53,951 nucleotides of DNA. Source: a virus. Lineage: Duplodnaviria; Caudoviricetes. A model generated the notes under the pieces. The model was not told the DNA's origin, ran no database searches, and was given only the letters and a program-made list of their open reading frames with translations. The number at the start of each line of letters is the position of its first letter. Positions within the stretch are counted from its first letter, which is position 1. The stretch is taken from the IMG/VR virus record IMGVR_UViG_3300021339_000008, positions 1 to 53,951 of that record; one strand, written 5' to 3'. Of this stretch, positions 7,492 to 51,797 are shown one piece after another. The position numbers and the translations under genes are program-made.

Positions 7492-9432
7492 ATGGCCAAT
7501 GTCGTCGAGATCGTCGTCAAGTCCAAGGACCAGTCCGGTCCTGGGCTGGCTTCTGGCGAACGGAATCTCGACGCATTCGCGAAGACCGGGGTCAAGGCCG
7601 GTGACGCGGTCGCCGGGTCGATGGAGAAGATGGCCGACAAGGTCACCGTCGCGCAGAAGCGAGTGTCTGCGGCGCTCGACGCGGAGGCGGAGTCGCTGGC
7701 CGAGGTGATGCGCGCCTCGGACCAGGTCGACTTCGAGCGGATCAGCGGTGACACCGACAAGCTGACCGCCGCGCAGAAGCGCCTAGACGAGGCGTTGCGG
7801 AAGCAGGCCAAGGCCAGCAAGGACGCGGAGAGCGCCGCGGCGTCACTCGGCCAGGCGCAGGCTCAGGCCGCGAAGGCCGCCGACAAGGCGGCGGCCGACG
7901 CCGGCAAGAAGCCGTTCCTGGAACTCGGGGGGAAGAAGTTCTCCGAGTCGATGGTGGCTGGTATCGCGGCTGGCGGTCCGCTGGTCGCCGCGGTTGGGGC
8001 GGCGGTCGGCGCTGCGGGTGCGGGTGCGGTGGTCACCGGGTTCGGTGCGGGTATCGCCGGGCTCGGTCTGACGATCGCGGCGAACTCGGGCCCGGTCAAG
8101 GGTTCCATTGAGAAGTTCAAGGCCGAGATCGGCGCGGATATGTCGCGCATTTCGGCGCCGTTTCAGCAGACGTGGGCGGTCATTCTCGATCAGGGCGAGA
8201 AGACGTTCGACAAGTTCAGGCCCGCCCTGGAGAAGTCGATGGGTGATCTGGCGCCGGTGATGTCTCGGTTTGTGGCTCGGCTTGGTCAGGGGTTCGCGCA
8301 GTTGGTGCCGGCGATCGCGCCGATCACCCGGGCCTTTTCGAAGGTGCTGGACGATTTGGGTCCGCGGATGCCGCAGGTCATCGGCGGGATCGAGAAGTCC
8401 CTTACCCGGTTGGCGTCGTCGATCGAGCGGAACCCGCAGGCGTTCGGCGATTTCATCAGCATTGTCGGTAAGGCGATTGAGCTTGTGCTCAATTTCGGGA
8501 TGGCCGTCAATGAGGCAAACGCGATTGTTCACAAGGCGTGGGACTTCGTCACGCTGAAGCAATTCCGGGGTGAGGCAGAGGGCGCCACGGGTGCGGTCGA
8601 GGGGCTCGACGGGGCGCAGCTGAAGGCGAAGCAGTCCGCGGCCGACATGGCCGAGGCCGAGCGGGCCGCGAAGGACGCCGCCGCGGCGCTGGCTGACGCG
8701 ATCCGCGACCTGACCGACGCCACCTACGCCAACATCGGCGGCGAACTCGCACGCAAGGCCGCGGTCGACGCCAGCGACGAAGCCCTCAAGACCTACACCG
8801 AGGCGGTCCGCGACCACGGGGCGAAATCCGAGGAAGCGTCGGACGCGCTGCTCGGCGTGGAGCAGGCCGCGTTGGCGGTGGCCGAGGCGACGTACAACGC
8901 CGCGCTGGCGCAACAGACGGCATCCGGGCAGGCACAGAACTCCGTCGCCGCGCAGACCGCTGCTCGCGACGCCCTGATGAACATGGCCGCGCACGCCAAG
9001 GGGCCGGCGCGCGACGCGATCCTGGCGCAGGCCGACGCCGTGCAGCAGTTGATCAACAAGCTGAACGCCGTCAACCGCACCTTCAACGCCAAGGTGATGA
9101 TCAGCTATCAGGGCACCGTCCCACAGGGGTTCCAGGCGGCGTCCGGCCGGACCGGCCTCGCCCACGGCGGCATCACCGGCGCGGCGGGCGGTGGCCCCCG
9201 CTCCCGGCAGACCCTCGTCGGTGAGCACGGCCCCGAGATCGTCGACCTCGCACCCGGGTCCACCGTCCACACCGCGGGTGAGACGCAGCGGATGCTCAGC
9301 CAGGGCGGCACCGGCGGCTTCACCCTGACCGAGCTGGTGCTGCCGCGCGGCAGCATCGAGGCCCTGCTCGTCGAGATCCTGCAGAAGGCCATCCAGGACC
9401 GCGGCGGCATGGGGCGGGTGTTCGTCGCATGA
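7492..9432 (+). CDS. Tape measure protein
   Basis: Ala-rich helical sequence, hydrophobic Gly/Ala segment, C-terminal AHGG..VGEHGPE motif. Confidence 0.9.
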   Translation: MANVVEIVVKSKDQSGPGLASGERNLDAFAKTGVKAGDAVAGSMEKMADKVTVAQKRVSAALDAEAESLAEVMRASDQVDFERISGDTDKLTAAQKRLDEALRKQAKASKDAESAAASLGQAQAQAAKAADKAAADAGKKPFLELGGKKFSESMVAGIAAGGPLVAAVGAAVGAAGAGAVVTGFGAGIAGLGLTIAANSGPVKGSIEKFKAEIGADMSRISAPFQQTWAVILDQGEKTFDKFRPALEKSMGDLAPVMSRFVARLGQGFAQLVPAIAPITRAFSKVLDDLGPRMPQVIGGIEKSLTRLASSIERNPQAFGDFISIVGKAIELVLNFGMAVNEANAIVHKAWDFVTLKQFRGEAEGATGAVEGLDGAQLKAKQSAADMAEAERAAKDAAAALADAIRDLTDATYANIGGELARKAAVDASDEALKTYTEAVRDHGAKSEEASDALLGVEQAALAVAEATYNAALAQQTASGQAQNSVAAQTAARDALMNMAAHAKGPARDAILAQADAVQQLINKLNAVNRTFNAKVMISYQGTVPQGFQAASGRTGLAHGGITGAAGGGPRSRQTLVGEHGPEIVDLAPGSTVHTAGETQRMLSQGGTGGFTLTELVLPRGSIEALLVEILQKAIQDRGGMGRVFVA

Positions 9433-12400
9433 CCACCTTCCCTCAGTTCCCCCGCGACCTCGACGCGGAGCTGTTCGTCCCCGGCACCGGGTGGGTGCCG
9501 CTCGGTGCCTACCCGCTGCAACGGGGGTCGTTCCGGCTGGAACGCGGTCTCGGGTCCAACGCGACCGCCGTGGTGCGGGGCACGGTGTCCGGCGAGTTGA
9601 ACAACCGCGACGGCCGCTTCAGTCCACGGAACCCGCGTGGCCCGTACTACGGCAAGCTCGGCGTCTACACCCCGTTCTACCTGGGTACGCGAGTCATCGA
9701 GGACGCGTTCGCCCGCACCTCGGCGTCGTCCTGGGGCAGCACCCCAGCCGGGCTCGCGTACACCACCCTCAGCGCCGGCGGCACCATCGCCGCGGCGGAC
9801 TACAACGTCGCCGCCGGCGTGGGCACCCACTCGGTGCCGGCCGCGGTGGCGTCCCGCGCCACCTACCTCGCGGGCCACGTGTACCGCGACGTCGACGTGA
9901 CGGTCGACGTCAGCCTGCCGTTCACCAACGTCACCGGCGGGTCGATCACCCTCGGGGTGATGCTCCGCGGCAAGTCCACCTCCGAGTACTACCTCGCGAC
10001 CGCCACCATCACCACCGCCGAGGCCATCGAACTCGGCTGGGAACACTCCACCGAGGGCCCCATCAGCGGCGCCACGGCCGTCACCGGCCTCACCCATGCC
10101 ACCGCCCAGACGCTGCGCCTGCGGGTCCTGCTCGAGGGGCAGACCCTGCGGATGAAGGCGTGGCCGGCCAGCGGCGCCCAGCCGTACGCGTGGCCCCTGG
10201 TGTGGTCCAACGTGGTCGCCGGGGCCGACATCCAGGTGAGCGGGTTCGGCTGGGTCGGGCTGATGGCCCGCGTCGACGCCGGCAACTCCAACGCGAAGCC
10301 GGTCATCGCGTCGTGGGACAACCTGGTCGTCAGGGTGCCGGAGGGCGCCGGGGAGATCACCGAACTACCCGTCGAGTGGGACAAGTCCGGCACCGACGTG
10401 TGGACCCCGTTCGTCGCGTCGGGGGTGCTGCAGCGGCTGGCCGCCGGCACCGGGGTGCTGGAGTCGGCGCCGCGGCGGTTCATCCCCACCAATGGGGCCC
10501 CGGTCGGCTACTGGCCCCTCGAGGGCGCCGAGCTCGCCGACGCGCTGCGACCGGTCGTGGGTACGCCACCGGCGGTGCTCGCCAGCTCCCTCAACTCGTC
10601 GGCGCACTTCGGCAAGGGCCAGTTGGCTTCGTGGCTGTCGCCGGTGTGCGCCCTGTTCGGCAACGACAGCGTCACCGTCAAGGTCACCATGCCCACCGCG
10701 TGGGCGACGACCGACGGGTGGCGTGTCGAGTTCGCCCGCCGCGGCGGGCGCGGCTCCGACACCACCCTCGTCATCCGCGGTGTGGCGGACGTGTGGACGT
10801 GCACGTTCCGGCCCGCGGTCGGCGACGTCGTGGTGCAGCCCCCGACAGGCGGGTCCACGTCGATCGGTGTCGAGGCCCTCTACGACGACGCCGTCCACCA
10901 GATCATGTTCTCCGCGCACCAGGTCGGCGCCGACGTCGTGTGGACGATCGACCTCGACTACGACGCCGCGGGCAGCGGCGCCACCCTCGGCGCCCACACC
11001 CTGCAGGGCGTCACCTCGGTCACCCTCGGAGACCCGACCGTCCACTCCGAGCCGTACGCCGTCGGTCACCTCGCGATCGCACCGGAGGCGTTCGTCGCGT
11101 CGACGGACTCGTGGCACGCCCTCACCGGGTTCCGGGGTGAGAAGGCGGGGTGGCGGTTCGCCCGGCTGTGCGACGAGCTCGGTATCGGCCGCAACCTCCT
11201 CGGCCACCCCGAGGACACCCAGCCGATGGGGCCGCAACGCGCCGGGCAGAAGGGCATCGTGCTGCTCGAGGAATGCACGGTGTCGGGGTCGATGGGTGAG
11301 ACCCGCGGCCTGAGCGGACTGTGGTTCCGCACGCTGCGGGACCGGTACAACGACGACCCGACCCTGACCCTGGACTACGCGCAGGGCGAGTTCGACGAGT
11401 TCAAGCCGGTCGACGAGGCGAGCGTCCTGGCCAACAAGGTCACCGCCTCCCGGACCGACGGCGGCACCGCCACCTCCGAGCTCACCACCGGCCGCCTGTC
11501 GACGCTGGCACCGGAGGACGGCGGCGCCGGCGAGGTCGCCACCACGGTGCCCGCCCCGGTGGCCACCGACAAGCAGCTGCCGCATATCGCCGGGTGGGCC
11601 CGCCGCCTCAGCACCGTCGACGAGTCCCGGTACCGGATCGGCCTGCAGCTGGGCAACGACCGGTACCAGACCGCGTCGGGGGCGCAGGCCCGCGCCGCCG
11701 CGGCGCAGGCCCTGACCGTCGACGACGTGCTGGCCGTGCTCAACCCGAAGGACGTGCTGGCGCCGGACACGATCCGGCAGGTGCTGCGCGGGGTGACCGT
11801 CGACCTGTGCCGGTACCGGCACGAGCTCGCGATCAACACGGCACCGGCCAGCCCGTACGACGTGTTCACCGTGGAGGACCCGGTGCTCGGCCGCCTGCAC
11901 GCGAGCGGGTCGGTGCTGGCGGTGGCGATCGACGACAACGACACGGCGCTGTCGGTGGCGTCGCCGGCGCGGCGGCGGTGGGCGACCACCACGGAGCCGT
12001 ACGTGGCGCGGATCGGCGGCGAGGACATCACGGTCACGGCCTGCGCCGACGAGGTGATGTCAAGCATCGTCGCCGGGACGGTGGCGCACGGCAACAACGC
12101 GAGCGTCGCACCAGGCCTGCCGGCTGGCCACGTCAGCGGCAACACGCTGCTGTGTCTGGCGGCGATCCGCAACAGCGGCGCCGGGGTGCCGTCGGGCTGC
12201 TCGGCCAGCTCTGGTGCCTACACCCGGCTGCCCGTGTTCGAGGCGGCGAGCAACGTCCAGCTGTTCGCGAAGATCGACAACGGGGCGGAGACGACCCCGA
12301 CCGTCACGTTCACGGGCGGCGTGGCCAACGCCGACACGTCGGCCCAGATCATCAAGATCGCGGGCGCCGTCTACGACGTCGACGAACTGCTCGTCCGCTC

Positions 12401-12794
12401 GGCCAGCGCCCTCAACGCGGCCGCCCAGAACATCGCGTTCCCCGGGCTGACCGTGAAACTCCCCAACTGCCTGATCATCTACGTCGGCTGGAAAGCCGAC
12501 GACTGGACCAGCGTCGCCGCGCTGGCCGGCGCCACCGAGATCGGCGAACCCGACACCACCACCGGTGATGACCAGGGCATCGTCTGGGACTACGTCCCTC
12601 AGACCCTCGCCGCGCACATCCCCACCGGCGAATTCGTCGTCACCGGCGGCGCGAGCGCGATCTCCCGCGGGGCCGTGCTGGCGCTGCGCTGCGACCGGCA
12701 GGCCTGGACCGTCACCCGCGGCACCGCGTGGGCCGGCGCCCACTCCGTCGGCGACCCCGTCCGGCTCGCCTCAACCCATGCCCTCGGACAGTAG
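9429..12794 (+). CDS. Large minor tail / baseplate protein
   Basis: LNNRDGRFSPRNP.GPYYG motif; 1121 aa following the tape measure. Confidence 0.8.
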   Translation: MTTFPQFPRDLDAELFVPGTGWVPLGAYPLQRGSFRLERGLGSNATAVVRGTVSGELNNRDGRFSPRNPRGPYYGKLGVYTPFYLGTRVIEDAFARTSASSWGSTPAGLAYTTLSAGGTIAAADYNVAAGVGTHSVPAAVASRATYLAGHVYRDVDVTVDVSLPFTNVTGGSITLGVMLRGKSTSEYYLATATITTAEAIELGWEHSTEGPISGATAVTGLTHATAQTLRLRVLLEGQTLRMKAWPASGAQPYAWPLVWSNVVAGADIQVSGFGWVGLMARVDAGNSNAKPVIASWDNLVVRVPEGAGEITELPVEWDKSGTDVWTPFVASGVLQRLAAGTGVLESAPRRFIPTNGAPVGYWPLEGAELADALRPVVGTPPAVLASSLNSSAHFGKGQLASWLSPVCALFGNDSVTVKVTMPTAWATTDGWRVEFARRGGRGSDTTLVIRGVADVWTCTFRPAVGDVVVQPPTGGSTSIGVEALYDDAVHQIMFSAHQVGADVVWTIDLDYDAAGSGATLGAHTLQGVTSVTLGDPTVHSEPYAVGHLAIAPEAFVASTDSWHALTGFRGEKAGWRFARLCDELGIGRNLLGHPEDTQPMGPQRAGQKGIVLLEECTVSGSMGETRGLSGLWFRTLRDRYNDDPTLTLDYAQGEFDEFKPVDEASVLANKVTASRTDGGTATSELTTGRLSTLAPEDGGAGEVATTVPAPVATDKQLPHIAGWARRLSTVDESRYRIGLQLGNDRYQTASGAQARAAAAQALTVDDVLAVLNPKDVLAPDTIRQVLRGVTVDLCRYRHELAINTAPASPYDVFTVEDPVLGRLHASGSVLAVAIDDNDTALSVASPARRRWATTTEPYVARIGGEDITVTACADEVMSSIVAGTVAHGNNASVAPGLPAGHVSGNTLLCLAAIRNSGAGVPSGCSASSGAYTRLPVFEAASNVQLFAKIDNGAETTPTVTFTGGVANADTSAQIIKIAGAVYDVDELLVRSASALNAAAQNIAFPGLTVKLPNCLIIYVGWKADDWTSVAALAGATEIGEPDTTTGDDQGIVWDYVPQTLAAHIPTGEFVVTGGASAISRGAVLALRCDRQAWTVTRGTAWAGAHSVGDPVRLASTHALGQ

Positions 12795-16802: not shown

Positions 16803-17258
16803 TCAGAGGCTGGCGAGCCCGGCGACGGCCAGCACCACGGCGAGCGGCAGGTAGACGGCGAGGACGGTCCGGGACAGCGCCGCACGGTAGTAGCGGGTCG
16901 TGGCCCGGTACGGCCTGACGTCCATCCGCAGCCACGGCACGCCGCCACCGATGACCGCGTTGTACAACGCGCGGAACAGCCGGGACTGCCACAGGTAGTA
17001 GCCGTCCAGGGCGCCGATGGCGAGGATCACCGCGATGGCCGGCCAGACGATGACGGCGGCCTGGCCTGCGACGGCCGCGTTGCCGCTGAGGGAGACCGCG
17101 GCGGCGGCGGTGGTGATGGTGACGGCGGCACCGCGCAGGGGCAGGGCGTGTCCGGCGAGCCGGGCGTTGATCGCCTGAATCAGCTTGGCGTGCTCGAGCA
17201 CGTCGTCGCGGGACGCGCGCTGCCGGACGGTGATGCGGCGGGGGCGGGGGTGCAGCAT
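16803..17258 (-). CDS. Three-TM membrane protein resembling a defence-island effector family
   Basis: GGAG RBS; EHAKLIQAINARLAG..RG....LDGYYLWQSRLFRALYNAV. Confidence 0.65.
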   Translation of the reverse strand: MLHPRPRRITVRQRASRDDVLEHAKLIQAINARLAGHALPLRGAAVTITTAAAAVSLSGNAAVAGQAAVIVWPAIAVILAIGALDGYYLWQSRLFRALYNAVIGGGVPWLRMDVRPYRATTRYYRAALSRTVLAVYLPLAVVLAVAGLASL

Positions 17259-17274
17259 GGCGGTCTCCTGTGTC

Positions 17275-17820
17275 TCAGGCAACGAGGATGGCGGCGGCGG
17301 CGAGGTGGTAGCAGGCGCGGCCGTGCTGACCGGCCGGGCAGGTGCAGGTGCCGGTGGCCAGCTCGACGCGGTAGGCGACGTCCCCGGCGGTCGACAGCGC
17401 GGCGTAGGTGGTGCCGGCGGTGCGGATGACCGCGTGCAGTTCGAGGCTCTCGACCGCCTTGGCGACCTGCGCCGGCTTGAACAGCGCGGCGGCGGCCTTG
17501 GCGGCGACGGCGATGCGGGTCTGGCAGGTGCGGCCGTAGCCGGCGGCGACCGAGCGCAGCGCGGTGAGGGTGCGTCCGCAGCGTCCACACTTGGCGGTCG
17601 GGGCGGGGCGCAGGCGGCGGGCGGCGTCGGCGGTGAGGACGACGTGCTCTTCGCGGCGACGGTCGGCGCCGCGGCGGTGGAGGACGGTGGCGATGACGGC
17701 GGTCTCGCCGTGCTCGGCGACGAGGTCGTCGACGCGCTGGGCCAGCTCGACACAGGTGACGCCGAGCTCGGCCGCGAGGGCGGTGAGGCTGATGGTGTCG
17801 GTTGCGGCTGCGGTCGTCAT
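17275..17820 (-). CDS. DUF6011-like + SWIM zinc-finger protein
   Basis: CGRCGRTLT..S.AAGYGRTC and CTCPAG...CYH motifs. Confidence 0.8.
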   Translation of the reverse strand: MTTAAATDTISLTALAAELGVTCVELAQRVDDLVAEHGETAVIATVLHRRGADRRREEHVVLTADAARRLRPAPTAKCGRCGRTLTALRSVAAGYGRTCQTRIAVAAKAAAALFKPAQVAKAVESLELHAVIRTAGTTYAALSTAGDVAYRVELATGTCTCPAGQHGRACYHLAAAAILVA

Positions 17821-17827
17821 AGGAGAA

Positions 17828-17896
17828 ACCTTATCCGGTTGGCGGACGAGGTTTAAGGGCCGAACGGGTGAACCTCAACCGCCCAGCGGATAAGGT
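17828..17896. promoter_or_regulatory. Two 25-bp palindromic operators between divergent genes
   Basis: ACCTTATCCG-N5-CGGACGAGGT (17828..17852) and ACCTCAACCG-N5-CGGATAAGGT (17872..17896); they overlap TAAGGT -10-like hexamers. Confidence 0.8.
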
Positions 17897-17908
17897 ATCG
17901 TCCCGGGG

Positions 17909-18130
17909 GTGAGCACCACCTGGACCGCCGACGCCTGCGCCGCGCACTGGGGCGTCACCCGCGATTCCTGGATGCGGTACGTCCGCGCCGGCCGCGCCCC
18001 GAAGCACGACCACTACGACCCTGAGACCGGCGAGCGCGTGTGGTTGGAAGCTGCCGTCCGAGCCTGGCAACGCCCCGGCCAGGGCGTCGGCGGCGGCCGG
18101 CCACGCAAGACGGCGGATACGCCCGACTGA
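17909..18130 (+). CDS. AlpA/MerR-like HTH DNA-binding protein
   Basis: WTADACAAHWGVTRDSWMRYV..G.AP....W....V.AW.RPGQG..GGRP. Confidence 0.8.
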   Translation: MSTTWTADACAAHWGVTRDSWMRYVRAGRAPKHDHYDPETGERVWLEAAVRAWQRPGQGVGGGRPRKTADTPD

Positions 18131-18254
18131 CCGAAGGCGTCAAGATCAGGCGACCGGCGACGATGCTTGACCGGCTCGGCGGCGCCTGACGTACCCTCGG
18201 CCTCGCGCGTCTTCCCCCGCGCTCCGCGTCAGCGTCGAGCCACGGGAGTCCGCC

Positions 18255-18554
18255 ATGCCCGATCTCAGCCAGATCCCCATGCCACCGGACCGGTACACCG
18301 TCGACGACCGCGTCGGCACCGTGCACCCGGACCGCTGCCCGGCCGGGCACCGCAGCGGCGTCGACGGGGTCCGCTGGATACACAGCGCACCGTCCCCCGG
18401 CTCCGCCAACTACTGGCTGTGCCTCGGCTGCGACCCCGTCCGTGGCCGCCGGTTCCGGGCAGCGGTCGAACTGTACGACGACCTGTCGTGGTGGTTCGAC
18501 GACCTGCAGGTGAGCAAGCGGGCGTACTGGAAGGCGCGGCACCTCGCGCGGTGA
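18255..18554 (+). CDS. Hypothetical protein (CPAGH / CxxC motifs)
   Basis: GGGAG RBS; 99 aa. Confidence 0.55.
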   Translation: MPDLSQIPMPPDRYTVDDRVGTVHPDRCPAGHRSGVDGVRWIHSAPSPGSANYWLCLGCDPVRGRRFRAAVELYDDLSWWFDDLQVSKRAYWKARHLAR

Positions 18555-18557
18555 CGG

Positions 18558-18746
18558 TCAGATCCGCCAGTGCAGCGCGGTGACCTCGACACCGGGCCGG
18601 GCGCCGGCGAGCGCGTGCGCGAGCAGGAACGCCTCGGCGTCAGTTGTGGCGGCGACCACGACGCGGGTCCGGTACACGGCGGTGACACCGCGTTTCAGGT
18701 CCGCGTGCGTGGCCGTCTCCGCGTCGAAGCTGTAGACCGCGACGTC
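18558..18746 (-). pseudogene. Coding-like frame lacking a proper start
   Basis: DVAVYSFDAETATHADLKRG...LHWRI* begins one base out of frame with the upstream stop codon. Confidence 0.35.
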
Positions 18747-19572
18747 ACGCCTCGATCCACGCGGGCGGGTTGGCCCAGTACTCCCGGTGCGCTTCGATCA
18801 GCCACCGGTCCGCCGCTTCCCGGTCCGGTTCGGCCGGCAGCGGGCTGGAGTCGAGCAGCGCGGTGAGCTCCGCCTCCGCCTCGCTGGCCGCGTCGAGCGC
18901 CCACTCCTTCGACCGCTCGCCGTACCGCAGGGCGGTGAGGTCGGACCGCCACGGCTCGGGCATCGGCAGCGTCAACCGTCCGGTGCGCAGCAGTTCGACG
19001 CCCTGCACTCCGAGTCGCACCATGTGGTAGGCGAACTTGGTGTCGAACCCGTGGAGGTCGACCAGCTCCGGCCGGTTCGTGTGTCGCTGCCCGCGGAGGC
19101 CGAGCATCTGCTCGCGTTGGGACCGCAGGTAGCCGATGAACCGGTGTCCGGCCTGCCGGGACAGGATCATCTCCGGGTGCTCGCGCAGGTACCGGCCGGT
19201 GGCGGTGCTGTCGACGACCTCGGAGTCCGGGACGAACAGCGGCAATAGCACCGTCGGGTTGCCCTGCAGGGCGAGCCGCAGCCACTTCCGCAGCGAGTAG
19301 ATCACCAGGTCGATGTCACCTGGTCCGGAGCGGACGCCCTGCGGTTGGGTGCGGTACTCGTACTGGTCGAACCGGCGCAGGCCGATGACGTACTCGGGTG
19401 GTTCGAGGCAGATGCCCATCTCGTCGCGGTCGTCCTGTTCGGCCACGGTGACGCCGTGGACGCCGCTGCCGACCTGGGTGCGCAGGATCTCACCGCGCAG
19501 CGCGAGGTCGCGGGCCGTCGGGGTGGAGTGCGGGCCGGTGAACGCCGCCGTGTAGATCACGCCGCCCATCAT
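18745..19572 (-). CDS. Pol-beta superfamily nucleotidyltransferase (RlaP/Nuc-transf-like)
   Basis: VGSGVHG...DDRDEMGI, YSLRKW..LA..GNP, GFDTKFAYHMVRL motifs. Confidence 0.85.
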   Translation of the reverse strand: MMGGVIYTAAFTGPHSTPTARDLALRGEILRTQVGSGVHGVTVAEQDDRDEMGICLEPPEYVIGLRRFDQYEYRTQPQGVRSGPGDIDLVIYSLRKWLRLALQGNPTVLLPLFVPDSEVVDSTATGRYLREHPEMILSRQAGHRFIGYLRSQREQMLGLRGQRHTNRPELVDLHGFDTKFAYHMVRLGVQGVELLRTGRLTLPMPEPWRSDLTALRYGERSKEWALDAASEAEAELTALLDSSPLPAEPDREAADRWLIEAHREYWANPPAWIEA

Positions 19573-19784
19573 GCAGCCCTGCGGATCGCATCGGCCAGCT
19601 CGTCGGCGTGGGACCGGTCCACCACCGTTGTCGACCGGTCGGTGCCCTGCCACGACACCAGGACCCCGATGGCCGCGCGGCCGCGCATGTCCACCCGGTC
19701 GACGATGATCGTGCACGGGTGCCCGTCGGCCGTGTATGCCTCGACGAGCGTCCGGTACGACAGGTCACCGTCGTCGCCGTTCAC
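19569..19784 (-). CDS. Hypothetical protein
   Basis: GTGA/ATGA coupling on both sides. Confidence 0.6.
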   Translation of the reverse strand: MNGDDGDLSYRTLVEAYTADGHPCTIIVDRVDMRGRAAIGVLVSWQGTDRSTTVVDRSHADELADAIRRAA

Positions 19785-20083
19785 GACTCGATCACCTGCG
19801 TCAGCCGGTTCGCCTCGGCGTGCATGCCGTCGGCGATCTGCGCGCACCTGGTGGCCTCGTCGACGTGATGGGTGGCCCGGTCCCGGTGGTGCACCGCGCG
19901 GCGCCCGTACCGGCCGGCCGCGGTGCGCAGCTCCCGGACGAGCAGGCGGCCCTCCGTCTCGACGTCGGGCGACGGTGCGATGTGCCCGTCGGTGCGGCCG
20001 CCGGGGATGACGGTCAGGTGCCGACGACGTCGACGGTGGGTCTCCGGTCGCTCACCGAGCGGCCGTGTCCGAGAATCTTCCAT
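19781..20083 (-). CDS. Hypothetical protein
   Basis: AGGAGG RBS; 100 aa. Confidence 0.6.
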   Translation of the reverse strand: MEDSRTRPLGERPETHRRRRRHLTVIPGGRTDGHIAPSPDVETEGRLLVRELRTAAGRYGRRAVHHRDRATHHVDEATRCAQIADGMHAEANRLTQVIES

Positions 20084-20163
20084 GGGTCTCGCCTCCTGGG
20101 GCGGGGTCAAGCCCTCCGGCCGGTGCTCGTAACACCGAGCCGGGGGGCGTCCAACAACGGGGT

Positions 20164-21156
20164 CTAGGTCGTTCCGCACACCTCGAAGAACATGTCGGCA
20201 GCGACGAGCCACGGCTCCAGCGGCGCCTCGGCCGTCAAGCCGAGCAGACCAGCCCGGGAGCTCACCTGATCGGAGTCCGACGGCAGGGCAAGTGCGAAGA
20301 TGGCGTCGGCCAGGATCTTGCGCTCAGTGGCCGAGCCGATGTCCTTGCCGCTCTCGTCGACCGCCCGAGCGAACGTGTCGCACGCGAGCTGGCCGGCCTG
20401 GTCCAGCGCCACCGTCGGCCCCGCCGCCGACGTTGTGGCATCGGTCGTGGTGGTCGTCGAGCTGGCCGCCGGCTGCACCGCCGGGTCGTCGTCGCCCCGG
20501 GTGGCGGCGATGAAGCCGCCGACCGCCGCCACGACGATGAAGGCGATCAGGCCGATGACCACCCCGAGGTTGGGGCCGCGACGGTCGGGCGGCGGCGGAT
20601 CGGTGGGCTGGCCGGGGGTGGGCGGGTCCTGCGGGGCCATGGGGGCTCTCCTCGGTGGGCTACCCCCGCGTATCGCTCGCCGAACACGCAGCATTAGCCA
20701 CGCGGTCGCGACGAGCGACCAACCGATCACCACCGAGCGGAGATCGCCGACGGCCACACCGGCGACGGTGCCGGCCGCGGTGAGCGCACCAGCCGCGAGT
20801 AGGCGCCACCGCTGGCGCCCAGGACGGGGCGGCGGCCGGGACCCGGTCGGCGGTCCTGCCGCTGCCGGTGAGGGCTGCGCCGTCGGCACGGGCCGTTCAC
20901 CGGGTCCCGGCGCGGGTGGCGTTGACGGCGTCGCTGCGGGTGCCGCCGTCCCGCCCGGCGCCGGACGCGACGCGGCACGCCGGACCCGTCCGCGTGCCCG
21001 CCGCAGCAGCGCGGTCAGCTCGTCGAGCAGCTGCCCGACGTCGGCGGGGGCGGCGCGCAGATCGGGATGCCGCTCGAGCAGCGCGGCGAGCTGGGTGAGG
21101 AGATCGTGACCGGCGCCGGCCAGCACGGTCGCCGGGTCCACGGTGCGGGCGGTCAC
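20164..21156 (-). CDS. Membrane protein; strong internal start at 20640 would give a 158-aa single-TM protein
   Basis: Three TM segments; GAGGAGAG RBS before the internal ATG; Cys pair in the C-terminal domain. Confidence 0.6.
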   Translation of the reverse strand: MTARTVDPATVLAGAGHDLLTQLAALLERHPDLRAAPADVGQLLDELTALLRRARGRVRRAASRPAPGGTAAPAATPSTPPAPGPGERPVPTAQPSPAAAGPPTGSRPPPRPGRQRWRLLAAGALTAAGTVAGVAVGDLRSVVIGWSLVATAWLMLRVRRAIRGGSPPRRAPMAPQDPPTPGQPTDPPPPDRRGPNLGVVIGLIAFIVVAAVGGFIAATRGDDDPAVQPAASSTTTTTDATTSAAGPTVALDQAGQLACDTFARAVDESGKDIGSATERKILADAIFALALPSDSDQVSSRAGLLGLTAEAPLEPWLVAADMFFEVCGTT

Positions 21157-21165
21157 AACGCCACC

Positions 21166-21384
21166 TCAGAGCGGGCGCCCGTTGTCCTCGTAGTACTCGC
21201 CCGTGACGAGTTTGTAGTAGCAGACGTTGACCGCGGTGAGGAGATGCACGGCCTCGGCGGGGCTGAGCCGGACCCGCCGACCCTCGTGGTAGATGTAGAC
21301 GTGCTGGCCGCGAACGGCGACCGCGAGCCAGTCCGGTTCACCATCCGCGTTCTCACAGCGGACGCGTTGTACCCGTTCCCCCAT
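21166..21384 (-). CDS. Hypothetical protein, first gene of the leftward operon
   Basis: 72 aa ORF with plausible codon use. Confidence 0.55.
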   Translation of the reverse strand: MGERVQRVRCENADGEPDWLAVAVRGQHVYIYHEGRRVRLSPAEAVHLLTAVNVCYYKLVTGEYYEDNGRPL

Positions 21385-21469
21385 GTCACCGTCCAGTCGC
21401 CGACATCTCGATCACTGTCCGTAGTTGATCTACCTTCCGCCACTGAACCCGGCTGGATGGTCGTAGCTA

Positions 21470-21485
21470 TCACCCGAACGGGTGA
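21470..21485. promoter_or_regulatory. Perfect 16-bp palindrome matching the BldM homodimer box
   Basis: TCACCCG-AA-CGGGTGA, intergenic; Streptomyces BldM consensus as recalled is TCACcCgnncGgGTGA. Confidence 0.7.
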
Positions 21486-21496
21486 CACGACCCGGG

Positions 21497-22483
21497 TCAT
21501 GACCGGCCGCCCTGGACCAGGGCCAACGTCGACCGCTGCTTGTCCCGCAGCGACCGGGCCGTCATCTCGTCCACCGAGTCGGCAGCGCCCTCAGGCTCGA
21601 CCAGGGTGTACATCGCGGTCGTCTCGGGGCTGCTGTGACCGAGGAGGATCTGCAGCTTGCGGATGTTCGGCTCCACCTCCAGCGTCCGGGTGGCGAAGGA
21701 GTGCCGCAGGTGGTGCCCGACGTGCTGGATGTCGAGCTCGGCGAAGTGCTGCCGGATGCGCTCACCCACGTCGGCCGGCCGGTAACCCTTGCCCGACGGC
21801 TTGGTGAACAGCGGCCCCTGCCCGCCGCGGAACGGCCGCAGCGCGCTCGCCACCTCGGCGGCCACCGGGACGCGGCGGACCTTCCCCCCTTTGCCTCGGA
21901 CGGTGAGCCACAAGCCGCCGCCGGCGCGGTCGGCCAGGTCTCCCGCTCGAAGGCCGGCGACCTCCATCCGGCGCAGTCCGCCGTAGCGGTACAGCATCAG
22001 CCAGGCGAACAACTCGGGGTCGTGGGTGGCTGCGTCCAGCGCGAGGAACACGTCGGGCTCTTCGACCGGGTCCGGGTTCCCCTTCTTGATCCGCTTCGGC
22101 CGCTTCACCCGCGCGGCCGGGTCGTCAAGCCGGTACTCGACCACGCCGACGAGGAACTCGCCGAAGAACAGGTGCAGCGCGCTGATGTAATTCGCGGCTG
22201 ACCGCGGCGAGCAGGTCAGTGCCTCGCGCCACTCCTGGAGCTGCGCGTACTGGGCGTCAACGAGCGCGACCTTGTGATGTGCGGACAGCCAGTCGGCGGC
22301 CCGCCAGTACACCCGGCGGTAGGAGTCGATGGTGAGCTGGGCCCCGCCCTCGCTGGCGTACCAGCGGATGAAGCGGCCGATGTGGAGTTCGTTGCTCTTG
22401 GTGCGCCCCTTCTTACCTCTTGTACTCGGTGGCATGTGTCGGCCAACGACCCTGTATTTGCGCTGGTCACGCGGTGTTGGCAT
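21497..22483 (-). CDS. int: Tyrosine integrase, XerC/D-like
   Basis: GLRRME (R), RGKGGK (K), HHLRHSFAT (HxxR), LGHSS..T..Y catalytic motifs. Confidence 0.92.
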   Translation of the reverse strand: MPTPRDQRKYRVVGRHMPPSTRGKKGRTKSNELHIGRFIRWYASEGGAQLTIDSYRRVYWRAADWLSAHHKVALVDAQYAQLQEWREALTCSPRSAANYISALHLFFGEFLVGVVEYRLDDPAARVKRPKRIKKGNPDPVEEPDVFLALDAATHDPELFAWLMLYRYGGLRRMEVAGLRAGDLADRAGGGLWLTVRGKGGKVRRVPVAAEVASALRPFRGGQGPLFTKPSGKGYRPADVGERIRQHFAELDIQHVGHHLRHSFATRTLEVEPNIRKLQILLGHSSPETTAMYTLVEPEGAADSVDEMTARSLRDKQRSTLALVQGGRS

Positions 22484-23015
22484 GATGCCTCGATCGAGTA
22501 ACCCCGAGTCGGGTGACGATGGCGCCGCTATGCCCGGAGTTCGGCGCTCGTGACCCTCTGTCGAGCAGCCTCGTTACGTGTTCTGACGCCGGCTGGTAAC
22601 GCGGCCAAGTACGACCTCCGGTGATATCGCCAGAGAAGGCCCTGACCTGCGGTGATCCTTGTCGAGTGTCCTGTCCATAACACGGATTATCGACGGCGAT
22701 ATCGACAGAATGCATCGCGCCGTAACTGTCCGTGCCCGTGGCGGCTTCGCGCTCGGCGAGTTGCGACAGCTTGGCCGCGAGCTGTGCCGCGGGCAGGAGC
22801 AGATCGGATGCCTGGACGCCGAGGGCGGTGGCCAGGACCGGCAGGTCCTCGATCTGCCAGCGCCTCCGGCCGCTGATCTTGTTGGCCACGGCGTTCTCTT
22901 GAAGTCCCATGGCCTGGGCGAGCTGCTTGGCGTACTTCATGCGCCGCCAGCCCATCAGGGCGTCGACATTCCGACGTATCACTGGCTGCAGGATGTCTGA
23001 CTCCTCGGCTGTCAC
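22467..23015 (-). CDS. Immunity repressor (XRE/Cro-CI HTH) with long C-terminal tail
   Basis: AKQLAQAMGLQENAVANKISGRRRWQIEDL..LA.ALGV..SDLL; upstream of int and divergent from the Cro-like gene. Confidence 0.85.
   Translation of the reverse strand: MTAEESDILQPVIRRNVDALMGWRRMKYAKQLAQAMGLQENAVANKISGRRRWQIEDLPVLATALGVQASDLLLPAAQLAAKLSQLAEREAATGTDSYGAMHSVDIAVDNPCYGQDTRQGSPQVRAFSGDITGGRTWPRYQPASEHVTRLLDRGSRAPNSGHSGAIVTRLGVTRSRHHANTA
22670..22697. other. Candidate attP core, dif-like
   Basis: CCTGTCCATAA-CACGGA-TTATCGACGGC: GTCCATAA/TTATCGAC inverted arms around a 6-bp spacer, inside the repressor ORF. Confidence 0.6.
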
Positions 23016-23030
23016 CCCGCCATCGTGCCT

Positions 23031-23123
23031 GATTATCTGCCACCCCGGCAAGTAATCCATCCGGGTGATACTCCGGACCGATATGCCAAACGGTCTATCA
23101 ATCTGCCGAGCTGGCAGATAATC
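23031..23123. promoter_or_regulatory. Repressor/Cro operators
   Basis: GATTATCTGCC-N5-GGCAAGTAATC (23031..23057) and ATCAATCTGCC-N5-GGCAGATAATC (23097..23123). Confidence 0.8.
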
Positions 23124-23130
23124 TACCGAC

Positions 23131-23349
23131 ATGGCTCGCACCCCAGAGATCCGACGACTGGCCTCCAAGGCCGTCGGTGGGCCCATCGCGCAGTGGATCG
23201 ATGGGCATCGCAAGTCCGCTGTCCAGTTGACCTACCCCCAGATCGCCAGCCTGCTCGCGGCTGATCACGACATCTGCGTGAGCGCCGAGACGCTGCGGGT
23301 CTGGCACATCAACGCCGACGCCGAGCCGGACCTCGCCGACACCGCCTAG
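23131..23349 (+). CDS. Cro-like HTH protein
   Basis: TYPQIASLL....VSAETLRVW; divergent from the repressor. Confidence 0.7.
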   Translation: MARTPEIRRLASKAVGGPIAQWIDGHRKSAVQLTYPQIASLLAADHDICVSAETLRVWHINADAEPDLADTA

Positions 23350-23445
23350 ACCGGCTGTCGCCCCGACCGGACCACGAACCAGCCGGGTCGGCAGCCACCC
23401 ACGGTCAGCAGCGCGCACCTCCCTCGGCGCAGCAGCGGCCACCCC

Positions 23446-23530
23446 GGCCGGCGGGGTGTCAGCACCACCCCGTCGGCCACCAAACGCAGACAGCAAGCGG
23501 GGCGCCGGATCGCACCCGGCGCCCCACCGC
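23446..23530 (+). terminator. Two GC-rich hairpins after cro (tR1-like)
   Basis: GGCCGGCGGGGTG..CACCCCGTCGGCC and GGGGCGCCGG..CCGGCGCCCC. Confidence 0.5.
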
Positions 23531-23555
23531 ACCGACCGAAGGGAAGTGACCTCCC

Positions 23556-24389
23556 ATGGCCACCACGACCGTACCGCCCGAGACGGAGATGGAGCAGATC
23601 CGCGTGTTCGCGCCGGGCGAGCTCGACCGCCTCTTCGCCGACGACGCGCCGGCCGCCGGGCATTGCCCGCGTTGCGGCGGCGGCTACAAGTGCCCGTGCA
23701 CGCACTGCCAGGCGTGCAAGGAGACCTACGGCCAGTGCGCCTGTCCGAAGGGTGAGGTCGACGGCCTGTTCGTGCCGGTGGCCCGGGGCGGTGACCCGGT
23801 CGTCAACGTCGAGGCGGTCGTCTGCCCCACCTGCGGGCGCCTCCCGTGCGGCTGCATGTCCGGCCCGCCGGTCGACCGGTCCGACCTCGTCCAGGCGTGG
23901 CACGACGCGCAGCACTCCGCCCGCTACGACGACGCCGAGGACCTCGTGACGCAGACCAAGGACGCCATCCGCACCGCCGCACTCCCCGGCCTCACCGTCC
24001 TCGACGGCGACGGCTACGACCAGCTCCTCGACACCGACGGCGACCCCGGCACCCCCATCGCATGGGGCAGGCCGCCCGTGCTGACCATCACCGACCACGA
24101 CGGCAGCCAGCTCACCGTGCAGCGCAGCAACGACCTGCACCGCGTGGCCATCGCCGACCACAACGGTGCCGTGTACCTGGCCGACACCGCCCTCGACGCC
24201 CTCGCCGAGCACCTGCTCCACCGCGGCACCGAGCTGGACGCCCTCGACCGGCACATCCAGGCGCTGCGCACCCTGGCCATCCGGCACGGCGGCGGCGGGT
24301 CGAACCTGCGGGCCGCGGTCGAGCACCTGGTCGACGAGCTCCGCGACCGCAGGACCCCCGCCCCGTCGACCGGCGGCCGGGTCGCGTGA
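23556..24389 (+). CDS. Cys-rich hypothetical early protein
   Basis: CPRC..CPCTHCQAC..CAC..CPTC..CGC. Confidence 0.7.
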   Translation: MATTTVPPETEMEQIRVFAPGELDRLFADDAPAAGHCPRCGGGYKCPCTHCQACKETYGQCACPKGEVDGLFVPVARGGDPVVNVEAVVCPTCGRLPCGCMSGPPVDRSDLVQAWHDAQHSARYDDAEDLVTQTKDAIRTAALPGLTVLDGDGYDQLLDTDGDPGTPIAWGRPPVLTITDHDGSQLTVQRSNDLHRVAIADHNGAVYLADTALDALAEHLLHRGTELDALDRHIQALRTLAIRHGGGGSNLRAAVEHLVDELRDRRTPAPSTGGRVA

Positions 24390-24739
24390 TGGCCACCGTC
24401 AACCGCCGATCCGGTAACACGGCGTCGGTCCGCGCCGTCCGCCTCGGTGACCCGCTGAGCGACCGCGAACGGCTCATCCTGATCCTCGTCGCCCGCGGCT
24501 ACACCAACGTGTCCATCGGCCTCGAGCTGCACCTGACCGACAACACCGTCGCCGGGCTGCTGCGGGTGATGTTCGCCAAGACGGGCGCCCGCTGCCGCAC
24601 CACCCTGGTCACGCGGGCGTTCGCCCCGTTCGGCTTCGGCATCGAGACTGCCCCGTCGTCGCGGCTCATCCCGGCGGCGCCCAACGCCACGGTCACCGCC
24701 ACCCGTCAGCTCGTCGCGACCGCCGCGAGGGTGTCGTGA
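24389..24739 (+). CDS. Stand-alone LuxR-type HTH protein
   Basis: LSDRERLILILVARGYTNVSIGLELHLTDNTV..K.GA..R; TGATG coupling. Confidence 0.8.
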   Translation: MATVNRRSGNTASVRAVRLGDPLSDRERLILILVARGYTNVSIGLELHLTDNTVAGLLRVMFAKTGARCRTTLVTRAFAPFGFGIETAPSSRLIPAAPNATVTATRQLVATAARVS

Positions 24740-25248
24740 ACGCCGACGACCGGCTGGTGCCGGTGTACATCGTGACCCGCCTGTCGGACCTGCTCGGCCC
24801 GGTCGGGTTGTCCCGGCTGCTGCCGCAGGTGCTCGACGCCTACGACGCGACCGAGACCGCCGACGTGGCCGTCCACCTGGTAGGGATGCTCACCCCGCGC
24901 GACGCCGAGGCACTCCTCGGGCCGCTGCTCGCCCTGTACGAGGTGCACCGGCAGGCCGTCGAGCCGGACGCCGCGGCGCTGGCCGACGATCTCGCCGTCG
25001 ACGCGGCCGTCCACGTGGAGCCGTTGACGAACCAGGAACGGCTGGTGCTGGCCGGGATCGCCACGGGGCGTACCAACGGTGAGATCGGCCGGGCGATGTA
25101 CCTGGCCGAGGCCACGGTGAAGACGCACACGGTGCGGCTGCGGCAGAAGCTCGGCGCCAGGGACCGCGCGCACGCCGTCGCCCGGGGGTATGAGCTCGGG
25201 CTGCTGCCGGCGGCGTTCCACCCGGCGGACCAGGCGGCGGCGTCATGA
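24736..25248 (+). CDS. LuxR/NarL HTH protein with BldM-like DNA-binding domain, no receiver
   Basis: LTNQERLVLAGIATGRTNGEIGRAMYLAEATVKTHTVRLRQKLGARDRAHAVARGYELGLL. Confidence 0.85.
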   Translation: MNADDRLVPVYIVTRLSDLLGPVGLSRLLPQVLDAYDATETADVAVHLVGMLTPRDAEALLGPLLALYEVHRQAVEPDAAALADDLAVDAAVHVEPLTNQERLVLAGIATGRTNGEIGRAMYLAEATVKTHTVRLRQKLGARDRAHAVARGYELGLLPAAFHPADQAAAS

Positions 25249-25499
25249 GCACCGTCTGCCCGACCTGCCGCAAGACGGCGGCCTACTGCACCTGCCGGGC
25301 CCGCCGGGTGGTCGCGGTCGTCGTCCTGGCGTTCGCGCTGGCAGGGTGTGAGCCGGGTGTCCAGACGCCCGGCCCGCCCGCCCCGGCGGAGCAGGTCATC
25401 GAGGAGGACGACCCGGGCTGGGACTGCCGCGTCCACGGCAACCGGCAGTGCGGCCCGGCGCAGACCGTGCCCGTACCGACCCCGGCGGTGCAGCCGTGA
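25245..25499 (+). CDS. Putative lipoprotein
   Basis: Hydrophobic stretch ending in an LAGC lipobox; EDDPGWDC..GNRQCG. Confidence 0.65.
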   Translation: MSTVCPTCRKTAAYCTCRARRVVAVVVLAFALAGCEPGVQTPGPPAPAEQVIEEDDPGWDCRVHGNRQCGPAQTVPVPTPAVQP

Positions 25500-46724: not shown

Positions 46725-47287
46725 GCCGCCTCATTCGTGGTGCCGAAACGAGAACCACCTCCGGATCAACCCTGGTCAACACGGTTGACCGTCTCCGGTG
46801 GCGGCTGAGCCGCGCGTGGTTCGGCTGCCCGCTGTGCCGCCGCCGGTTCGGCGACCACACCGAGTGCAGCCAGGCTGTCGATCAGGCGCTGGAGGCCGCG
46901 CTCGACGTCGCCAACCGCCTCGACCGCATCGAAGTGACCGTGCTCCCGGCCGAGGACTTCCTCGACGACATGCCCCCGCTCGTGCGGGTCACCGGCGTGC
47001 TCGACGGGACGCCGTTCAGCACCACCATGCTCGCCGCCACCTGGAGCGACGAGCACCCGCACGGCGGGCCGCGCCTCCGCCTGCTGGAGCGGCTCACCGC
47101 CGAGGCCGAGATCGAGCGGCGGTTCATCGGCGTCCTCGACGGGTGGCGGCCGACCGGCATCCTCACCGGTGGCAACTGGGACGGCGACGTTGCCGCGTTC
47201 CGACGGTCCGAGATCGACGCCCCGAGCCGGCCGCCGCTCACCGTCGACGAGGTGCCAGACACAGCGGCCAACGGCCCACCCGGCTGA
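46721..47287 (+). CDS. Hypothetical protein
   Basis: GTGA coupling; CPLC..H..C. Confidence 0.55.
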   Translation: MSRLIRGAETRTTSGSTLVNTVDRLRWRLSRAWFGCPLCRRRFGDHTECSQAVDQALEAALDVANRLDRIEVTVLPAEDFLDDMPPLVRVTGVLDGTPFSTTMLAATWSDEHPHGGPRLRLLERLTAEAEIERRFIGVLDGWRPTGILTGGNWDGDVAAFRRSEIDAPSRPPLTVDEVPDTAANGPPG

Positions 47288-47289
47288 CC

Positions 47290-48839: not shown

Positions 48840-49052
48840 GTGACGGGCCGCGGTGTCTCCCTGCTCGGCCTCCTCCTGGGCAAGATCGCCAACCTCCCGG
48901 CCGTCAGCCTGCTGCTGTGCATCGCCGGCCTCGTCTTCCTCAGCGTCGCCGCGTTCACCTGGAACCTCACCGCCGGCTTCGCCTCGATCGGCGGTGGGCT
49001 GCTGCTCCTTGAGGTGCGCGTCAGCGCCAGCACCACCGCGGCCGCGCCATGA
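48840..49052 (+). CDS. Small membrane protein preceding the portal
   Basis: Two hydrophobic segments; ATGA coupling to the portal. Confidence 0.6.
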   Translation: MTGRGVSLLGLLLGKIANLPAVSLLLCIAGLVFLSVAAFTWNLTAGFASIGGGLLLLEVRVSASTTAAAP

Positions 49053-51552: not shown

Positions 51553-51797
51553 ACCGGCCCGTGACCCCGCCCGAGGACGGTGACGGCCCGCCCGCCTCGG
51601 GTTACGGCGGCGCCATCGTCCGCCGCCCCGGTCACCCCACCGTCCGGTCCAAGCCGGTCTGCCTGCCGGGCGCCACCGAGAGCGTCACCCCGTGCTGGCC
51701 CGGCGAGGCCGGACCCGAGCTGTTCACCACCTGCTCGGTCGACGACTGCGACCGCCCCGCCGTGCCGCCGGGCGACACGTGCGGAGGACACCCGTGA
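51549..51797 (+). CDS. Hypothetical protein (GEAGPELF motif, C-terminal Cys/His cluster)
   Basis: ATGA/GTGA coupling. Confidence 0.5.
   Translation: MNRPVTPPEDGDGPPASGYGGAIVRRPGHPTVRSKPVCLPGATESVTPCWPGEAGPELFTTCSVDDCDRPAVPPGDTCGGHP

Follow-up and report, generated by a model that had tools for sequence, protein, structure and literature searches.

The lysogeny locus of the IMG/VR virus record IMGVR_UViG_3300021339_000008 (Duplodnaviria; Caudoviricetes), analysed over its entire length of 53,951 nucleotides (nt; hereafter the window), comprises a repressor gene (rep) and an integrase gene (int) at positions 21497 to 23015 and probably belongs to the known family of integration-dependent immunity systems, here in an uncultured soil actinophage. 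Such immunity was reportedly described by Broussard and colleagues in 2013 for the mycobacteriophages BPs, Brujita, and Charlie. [quoted passage not shown] The balance tips slightly towards an integration-dependent immunity module also in the present phage, because such a module would agree with the gene layout, the arm-less integrase, the disordered tail of the repressor, and what the repressor family has in common. The more specific reading, a switch of the BPs/Brujita type with its attP in the tail-coding DNA, a palindrome resembling the chromosomal site dif as its core, and a target other than dif itself, is given an even chance. An original prediction from the same sequence had coupled integration-dependent immunity with insertion at dif; its first part agrees with the layout, the integrase, the tail, and the alanine-rich protein ends of the repressor family, but the coupling to dif is not supported. 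The locus contains the following features:

21497..22483, minus strand: tyrosine integrase of 328 amino acids (aa), matching PF00589 (1.1e-16), PF02899 (1.6e-4), and PHROG integrase families
22467..23015, minus strand: repressor open reading frame (ORF), 182 aa if started at GTG 23015, or 197 aa if started at ATG 23060, as the gene caller has it (P0121); stop codon at 22467-22469
22740..23009, minus strand: folded helix-turn-helix (HTH) domain, which AlphaFold2 places at residues 18-107 of the repressor form P0121
22470..22739, minus strand: C-terminal tail of the repressor, ~90 aa, predicted to be disordered, ending in -HANTA and overlapping the presumed attP
22670..22697, no strand assigned: dif-like 11-6-11 palindrome, candidate attP crossover core; minus strand GCCGTCGATAA-TCCGTG-TTATGGACAGG
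22699..22708, plus strand: third copy of the half-site, ATATCGACAG, which directly repeats the arm TTATCGACGG (22687-22696) and follows it two bases downstream; belongs to the 16-nt direct repeat D3
22613..22634, plus strand: repeat block GACCTCCGGTGATATCGCCAGA, with a fourth, weaker half-site-like copy ATATCGCCAG at 22624-22633; direct-repeat families D3 and D6
22644..22656, plus strand: second copy of GACCT[CG]CGGTGAT (family D6; two copies in the window, both here), covering most of CCCTGACCTGCGG
23031..23123, no strand assigned: operator-like repeats of the rep-cro control region, ATCTGCC-N5-GGCAGAT at 23101-23119 and a weaker copy at 23035-23053
23131..23349, plus strand: divergent cro-like gene, 72 aa, first gene of the rightward arm; G+C content at third codon positions (GC3) 0.86

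The layout agrees with that of BPs, Brujita, and Charlie: rep and int lie next to each other in the same orientation, a cro-like gene diverges from them, and the control region is operator-bearing. The stop codon of rep overlaps the start of int by 17 nt. The control region has 20-nt inverted arms (23031-23050 and 23104-23123) that are 90% complementary in a repeat search, and GATTATCTGCC is restricted in the window to the two operator-like repeat copies. The ATCTGCC half-site forms a perfect 7-5-7 palindrome at 23101-23119 and has a lone copy inside the repressor gene (22852-22861). The 72-aa divergent gene has no match in Pfam or PHROG and is presumably cro-like, judging from its position alone. 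A scan of 21100-23400 for sigma-70 promoters found nothing.

The domains of the integrase are limited to a core-binding (PF02899) and a catalytic domain (PF00589); as in BPs, Brujita, and Charlie, there is no arm-binding domain. Its best phmmer matches in the PDB, over residues 14-308, are XerA (4a8e; 4.8e-16), XerD (1a0p; 2.1e-15), and, ranking slightly below them, Gp33 (5vfz; E value 1.1e-13), presumably the integrase of Brujita. With regard to the IntBrujita subgroup of simple tyrosine recombinases (Smyshlyaev et al. 2021), the evidence is this pairwise match. The compact enzyme of the original prediction, there called XerC-like, is thereby borne out as Xer-like. In the structural model, which has a mean predicted local distance difference test score (pLDDT) of 64 (low confidence), the N-terminal half is all-helical and has no beta-rich arm-binding domain. 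The start codon at 22483 is backed by the N-terminus MPTP..QRK, which is common to the relatives P0005 and P0006. The closest relative of the integrase is P0002 (60% identity), and the nearest annotated homologs are integrases of Mycobacterium abscessus prophages (31-36% identity), among them that of prophiGD43A-3, whose depositors place attP within the immunity repressor. The C-terminus reads -LVQGGRS, and those of five close relatives (P0002-P0006) read -RRRL, -RRVS, -VREA, -GRGL, and -EGVS. The ORF downstream of int (21166-21384) has no match in Pfam or PHROG, but no search was aimed at directionality factors.

A search of genome contigs with the integrase gave 82 pattern matches, none of which was confirmed, and a search of viral contigs gave nothing; at least 80 loci were found in metagenome contigs, all with at most 56% identity over short segments, and the close clade was absent among the matches listed. 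The integrase profile matched one of 39 genomes with related terminases (104 bits, locus L185) and one of 401 genomes of the G004 family (129 bits, locus L188), and none of six IMG/VR relatives found via the terminase. Both integrases are too distant for a transfer of core sequences. Upstream of the L188 gene (genome G823), at a distance of 180 nt, lies a 14-6-14 inverted repeat (2543-2576; CTCATCGTGTGTCA / TGACACAGTCTGAG), which may be the simple attachment core of that integrase itself. Locus L185, on a contig of a metagenome-assembled genome of Micromonosporaceae (G788), has cro, rep, a small ORF, and int in the order of the phage form; ~40 nt upstream of int, it carries CCATAA-CTGAGAG-TTATTC, which recalls CCATAA-CACGGA-TTATCG in the phage window.

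The repressor matches HTH_26 (E value 7.3e-6) and PHROG families of transcriptional repressors. In the AlphaFold2 model of P0121, which was based on 20 aligned relatives, helices extend from H18-38 through H91-107 with a pLDDT of 93-98 over residues 21-100, whereas the values from residue 111 to the end are ~50 (47-59). A repressor HTH followed by a long, poorly structured tail that overlaps the start of the integrase, as originally described, is therefore what the domain match, the model, and the 17-nt overlap indicate. Like BPs, Brujita, and Charlie, the phage thus combines a folded repressor domain with a dispensable-looking C-terminal extension, and the repressor ORF encloses its candidate attP. 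The codon-position bias of G+C content changes along the gene: GC3 is 0.84-1.0 from ~22990, but the bias is gone by ~22720-22735, and GC3 in the tail is 0.48-0.72. The tail frame is open over 86 codons without codon bias, as it is in 5.6% of 20,000 shuffled sequences, and the five remaining frames of the tail region are closed, with one to four stops each.

A library of 1.84 billion proteins contains 48 relatives of the repressor (E ≤ 1e-3), and homology is restricted to approximately residues 14-126, with P0133 as the one exception. No sequence relative was detectable among 50,697 phage records, and a search of viral contigs with the repressor alignment and P0290 gave nothing. Tails of at least 45 aa beyond the anchor are present in 32 of 49 family members; these tails are mutually unrelated, and homology ends at the end of the domain. 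Among the long-tailed members, alanine occupies 25 of the 64 last-two positions, compared with a 12.3% share across the whole tails (binomial p 5e-8), and five of the long tails end in -AA. The alanine-rich ends represent the ssrA-like pattern of known integration-dependent systems (PMC8092301, PMC9262239). In nine of 49 repressor relatives (among them P0123, P0125, P0131, P0134, P0136, P0140, P0150, and P0164), the motif ATGT[DE] is located exactly at the end of the folded domain (22728-22742), and the sequences diverge afterwards; other relatives have TGT[DE]G. The motif may be a feature of the protein or may mirror a conserved DNA site.

The 28-mer that the original prediction placed within the repressor tail is indeed present at 22670-22697 (plus strand, CCTGTCCATAACACGGATTATCGACGGC) and begins 14 codons past the folded repressor domain. 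Its two 11-nt arms are complementary at 8 of 11 positions, which by estimate is not unusual for an inverted repeat as such; the significance of the palindrome rests on its dif-type inner motif. The likeness to dif is real and not an artefact of reading, because the motif is unique against an expectation of 0.02 and picks out dif in genomes. When one mismatch is allowed, CGATAA-N6-TTATG is found a single time in the window compared with a mean of 0.02 in 100 shuffled sequences, two of which contained any match, and among five exact matches in five actinomycete genomes (~46 Mb), four are canonical dif sites; the reversed control pattern occurs once. The shorter pattern ATAA-N6-TTAT has a single occurrence in the window.

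Within 22470-22760, moreover, no inverted half-sites other than those of the palindrome are separated by a 6-bp spacer; in this stretch, a repeat search at seed 6 otherwise found a palindrome that has no spacer and a 10-nt pair 18 nt apart. Additional half-site copies flank it, one of them two bases away and a weaker one 63 nt upstream. The consensus of the two arms, TTATSGACRG, has five matches in the window (at most one mismatch), three of them within 38 nt. GATATC occurs only twice in the genome (22623 and 22698), in both cases within 16-nt direct repeats (CGGTGATATCGCCAGA, CGGCGATATCGACAGA) that flank the palindrome. Three of the four copies of GATAATC in the genome are located in this region, and the motif is common to the palindrome and the operator-like repeats. 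Slightly upstream in plus-strand numbering, the motif CCCTGACCTGCGG has its single occurrence in the window at 22640-22652, where the original prediction had noted it, but the link to actinobacterial attachment sites drawn there is not supported, and the matches in genomes are at chance level.

The architecture of the palindrome has counterparts among the prophages with the nearest annotated integrases. ProphiGD43A-3 has ACCTTAC-TCGAAA-GTATGGT at the record boundary, and phiT45-1 has TTCTTAC-TCACGA-GTATGAA in the 3' part of the repressor gene, ~100 nt before the stop codon (both read by eye); these are 7-6-7 palindromes with arms complementary at six of seven positions. The M. abscessus prophages and the present phage share a palindrome of half-site, 6-bp spacer, and half-site at or near the annotated or presumed attP, although the half-sites are CTTAC/GTATG in the former and CGATAA/TTATG in the latter. 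The integrase of Brujita reportedly uses small substrates with a 6-base overlap. The palindrome is, with moderately good probability, the best internal candidate for the crossover core, because it is the sole 6-bp-spaced pair, has flanking copies, contains a rare motif, and resembles the attP of M. abscessus prophages. These prophages combine integration-dependent immunity with bacterial attachment sites (attB) outside tRNA genes, common cores of 3-25 bp, and repressor truncations of 20-35 residues, and some integration-dependent systems have no tag on the integrase (Dedrick et al. 2021, PMC8092301). They are integrated in a known host, whereas the present phage is known from a metagenomic record.

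There are also differences from BPs-type phages. The BPs repressor extends ~33 residues past the core, compared with ~70 residues past the candidate core in the present phage. The repressor and the integrase end in -NTA and -GGRS, whereas the BPs-type ends are -LAA-like. Moreover, BPs-type attB sites are tRNA genes with common cores of ~35 bp (PMC9262239), but neither a tRNA-like sequence nor a long core was found for the phage.

The gene layout, the domains, the disorder, the motif statistics, and the family traits are observed features of the locus; from here on we infer the position of crossover, a degradation tag on the repressor, and immunity that depends on integration. The repressor and the simple Xer-like integrase would be read leftward as one unit, with the cro-like gene read rightward from the operator-bearing region. 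The attachment site would lie within the DNA that encodes the disordered tail, and its crossover core would most likely be the 28-bp palindrome, in which a 6-bp overlap separates two inverted half-sites for the integrase; one or two further copies lie alongside. Crossover within TCCGTG would hit codons P111-C112 of the 182-aa form of the repressor; the predicted truncation near ..VDNPCY would result only from a crossover at the palindrome. Integration would then keep the folded domain and ~19 linker residues but cut off ~70 residues at the C-terminus; the -NTA end would be lost with them and may mark the repressor of the free phage for degradation. On this view, the palindrome would not be a copy of the host dif, and its likeness to dif would come from an integrase that, as a Xer relative, recognizes a similar inner half-site.

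Searches for the corresponding bacterial sites found neither attB nor the prophage junctions attL and attR in ~1,540 genomes, which are samples that possibly do not include the host. The region 22484-22760 has no blastn match (word size 11) among the 50,697 phage records. Among 401 genomes drawn evenly from the G001 class, 27 had BLAST matches to this region, all of at most 43 bits, and seven inspected matches, which cover the GC-rich positions 22726-22760, are unrelated to one another; the match in G047, one of the 27 genomes, was excluded from this inspection and supports no claim. The 22-mer GTCGATAATCCGTGTTATGGAC was found in none of 401 genomes in the G003 order with up to two mismatches. 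The region 22640-22720 had matches at E ≤ 0.02 per genome in six of 371 genomes (G002 order) and 12 of 366 genomes (G001 order), which is about the level of chance, and none covered the palindrome. Four of these matches are to the CCCTGACCTGCGG stretch, and their contexts are unrelated and free of tRNA or Rfam matches; another four are exact 19-mers, of which L193 was inspected and by eye resembled a LysR-type gene; two others show 78-80% identity over 45 nt in a conserved gene (jag by eye) that has no ATAA-N6-TTAT motif. The core 17-mer has two matches in IMG/VR, which were rejected as unrelated (32% and 58% GC). Locus L189 of another genome, G1373, contains CCCTGACCTGCGGTGATG in a perfect inverted repeat of 16 nt (CCTCGTGCACGATAAG / CTTATCGTGCACGAGG) around ~70 nt; this repeat adjoins an apparent fragment of a Tn3-type transposase.

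Neither tRNA genes nor other Rfam families match 22400-22800, nothing in 21330-21560 matches Rfam above noise, and no long common core was present in the 401 genomes of the class-wide sample, in which a long core of the tRNA type would probably have surfaced. The bacterial target is probably not a tRNA gene and probably shares only a short core with the phage. Searches by identity could miss such an attB because cores of the M. abscessus type can be as short as 3-25 bp. The nucleotide searches of genomes covered 22484-22760 or parts of it. Two soil-metagenome sequencing runs matched the phage, X2 with 0.07 of the sampled words and X1, which may be the source sample, with a contig that spans 17242-25349 in phage form. 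There was no joint near 22683 among the X1 joints listed, which had sides of at most 22 nt and 85% likeness. The metagenome contigs are no evidence either way on integration.

The resemblance of the palindrome to dif raises the possibility that the phage integrates at the chromosomal dif of its host through an Xer-like integrase that it encodes itself, aided or not by host XerC/XerD. In actinomycete genomes, CGATAA-N6-TTATG is nearly diagnostic of dif, as the genome matches show, and the inner arm on the XerC side, YCGATAA, is fully matched. In elements known to exploit dif, the XerC side is good and the XerD side degenerate; examples are CTXphi, VGJphi, and TLCphi, which exploit host XerCD and share with the present phage a dif-like site on a mobile element whose XerC side is better than its XerD side. 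As a rule, however, elements that exploit host Xer have no recombinase of their own: CTXphi, VGJphi, and TLCphi have no integrase and need XerCD, whereas the phage encodes a recombinase beside its site, and its palindrome adjoins the phage's own recombinase gene, unlike a chromosomal dif.

The sequence itself also differs from dif outside the inner motif. Canonical dif in four genomes of candidate host lineages reads YCGATAA-NNNACA-TTATGTCAAST. The palindrome has the same 11-6-11 layout, and its inner YCGATAA and TTATG are identical to the consensus, but its spacer TCCGTG agrees with those of the individual sites (TGCACA, TGTACA, TGGACA, CGAACA) at only one or two of six positions, and its right arm TTATGGACAGG agrees with the XerD arm TTATGTCAAST at six or seven of 11 positions (outer part GACAGG instead of TCAAST); overall identity is 15-17 of 28 positions. 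Tyrosine recombinases require matching overlap regions. Recombination with such a dif is unlikely because the overlap regions must match and TCCGTG differs. Among the 66 predicted actinobacterial dif rows of Kono et al. 2011 (PMC3025954), 48 were compared, and none of these has a G after TTATG or the spacer TCCGTG; the dif spacer ends in ACA in most of the 48 rows and in ACG, AGA, or ATA in a few, whereas that of the phage ends in GTG. A Streptomyces genome that was tested has no match to CGATAA-N6-TTATG, the 22-mer is absent from the 401 genomes of the G003 order, and no match covers the palindrome in the 371 and 366 genomes mentioned above. No integration at dif was seen in the genomes searched, and a single literature search for dif-like attP sites with a tyrosine integrase found no actinophage with a dif-like attP among the best 15 of 99 papers, judged from titles and abstracts. 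The identification of attB with chromosomal dif in the original prediction is thus not sustained, since every dif compared has another spacer and another XerD-side arm and no dif integration was seen. Integration at dif is very improbable, and so is the variant in which a Xer-derived phage integrase, perhaps with host XerC, inserts at or beside the host dif and cuts the repressor tail. If true, insertion at dif would couple lysogeny, immunity, and chromosome-dimer resolution at a single 28-bp site.

Three further explanations have to be weighed. A conventional switch, in which the repressor ends near residues 107-115, the tail is a chance-open ORF over a non-coding rep-int spacer that holds attP, and integration has no role in immunity, is possible but doubtful. 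The tail has no codon bias, its frame is also open in 5.6% of shuffled sequences and thus not a rarity, its end is -NTA rather than -AA, the integrase is untagged, and the apparent closest relative has a tail-less repressor of 101 aa. By contrast, the long non-homologous tails of 32 of 49 family members, the strong enrichment of alanine in their last two positions (p 5e-8), the closure of all five other frames in the tail region, the overlap of the rep stop codon with the int start, as for a coupled rep-int operon, and the origin of the nearest annotated integrases from integration-dependent systems speak against it. It is unlikely, if conceivable, that attP is real but has its core elsewhere, either in 22484-22740 or downstream of int at 21385-21496, so that the palindrome would be an accessory or regulatory site. 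Other repeats are present (GACCT[CG]CGGTGAT twice, GATATC-centred 16-mers twice), GATAATC is shared by the palindrome and the operator-like repeats, ATGT[DE] marks the domain end in nine of 49 repressor relatives, and the genome searches did not take in 21385-21496. However, no other pair of inverted half-sites in 22470-22760 has a 6-bp spacer, the architecture of the palindrome matches attP of the nearest annotated systems, and 21330-21560 has no Rfam match above noise.

It is extremely unlikely that recombinase and palindrome form a resolution module of an extrachromosomal plasmid prophage, similar to Cre/loxP or XerS/dif. Cre/loxP, a simple recombinase beside a palindromic site, as well as XerS/difSL and XerH/difH have in common with the phage a simple tyrosine recombinase encoded beside its own single palindromic site, and no attB was found for the phage. 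These systems resolve chromosome or plasmid dimers, whereas the phage recombinase belongs to a lysogeny switch, and a search for partition genes gave none: neither ParB_N (PF02195) nor the ParA-type AAA_31 (PF13614) has a match in the complete record. Moreover, the nearest annotated homologs are integrases of integrated prophages, and the rep-int-cro layout is typical of integrating phages. XerS/difSL and XerH/difH are single-recombinase Xer systems (PMC2731167, PMC8138268).

Several observations weigh against a BPs/Brujita-type switch with the palindrome as its core. The integrase model is poor (mean pLDDT 64), and there is no ssrA-like tag on the integrase, which ends in -GGRS. The open tail is only weakly significant (p ~0.06), and it ends in -NTA instead of -AA. 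The repressor P0123 has 101 aa, with its stop codon eight residues after ATGTE; it and P0002, the closest relative of the integrase, are both on a contig of 54,086 nt, which is taken to be the same contig from the equal size alone, so that a short repressor seems to be present in the phage most closely related. If they do share a contig, even the nearest kin has not conserved the tail. The predicted loss of ~70 residues is twice the 20-35 residues of M. abscessus prophages (PMC8092301). The five matches of TTATSGACRG compare with 4.17 expected genome-wide, so only their clustering is informative, and the broader consensus WTATSGMCRG was built post hoc from the four sites it counts, which makes it circular as a statistic. 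The palindrome is a candidate crossover position derived from internal and comparative evidence, since neither attB nor attL or attR was found.

The phage itself stems from a soil metagenome, with a record of 53,951 bp, ~72% G+C, and a completeness rating of 100%. It is a tailed temperate phage, with the following genes for structural and packaging functions:

7492-9432: tape measure protein
within 46798-48714: large terminase subunit
49049-51256: portal protein
51692-52768: protease

RecE/RecT-like genes, a DnaB-like helicase, and RusA are also encoded. The major capsid gene (52765-53949; 395 aa, open) runs off the 3' end of the record, and a match to the C-terminal part of Phage_capsid is located at the 5' end, at positions 26-292; the record looks like a circularly permuted complete genome that was cut within this gene. 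A near-identity search with 21000-24000 gave no match among the 50,697 phage records, and a tRNA gene search of the whole phage found none. No close relative was found among cultured phages; the best match of the portal protein is from Streptomyces phage Dagobah (38%). Prophages of Pseudonocardiaceae, Nonomuraea, Streptomyces, Amycolatopsis, Lentzea, and others contain relatives of the terminase with ~60% identity, which makes an actinomycete the probable host without narrowing down the genus. Immediately to the right of the lysogeny switch lies a regulator of the GerE/LuxR family (24736-25248). Other genes include an accessory RlaP-type nucleotidyltransferase (PF10127, 5.5e-35; 18745-19716) and a tail-region protein of 1121 aa (phrog_5313; 9429-12794) with a phosphodiesterase-like segment inside.

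If the tail is accidental, the locus is an ordinary rep-attP-int module. If the BPs/Brujita-type reading is true, integration-dependent immunity extends beyond the phages of Mycobacterium and Gordonia to uncultured soil actinophages with 72% G+C. An arm-less attachment site of 28 bp would then also be a candidate for simple integration vectors in high-GC actinomycetes. It has been proposed that phages recruited Xer recombinases (PMC8138268). An integrase that is as close to XerC/XerD as to phage integrases, acting on a core site that keeps the inner half-sites of dif, would provide a concrete intermediate for such a recruitment.

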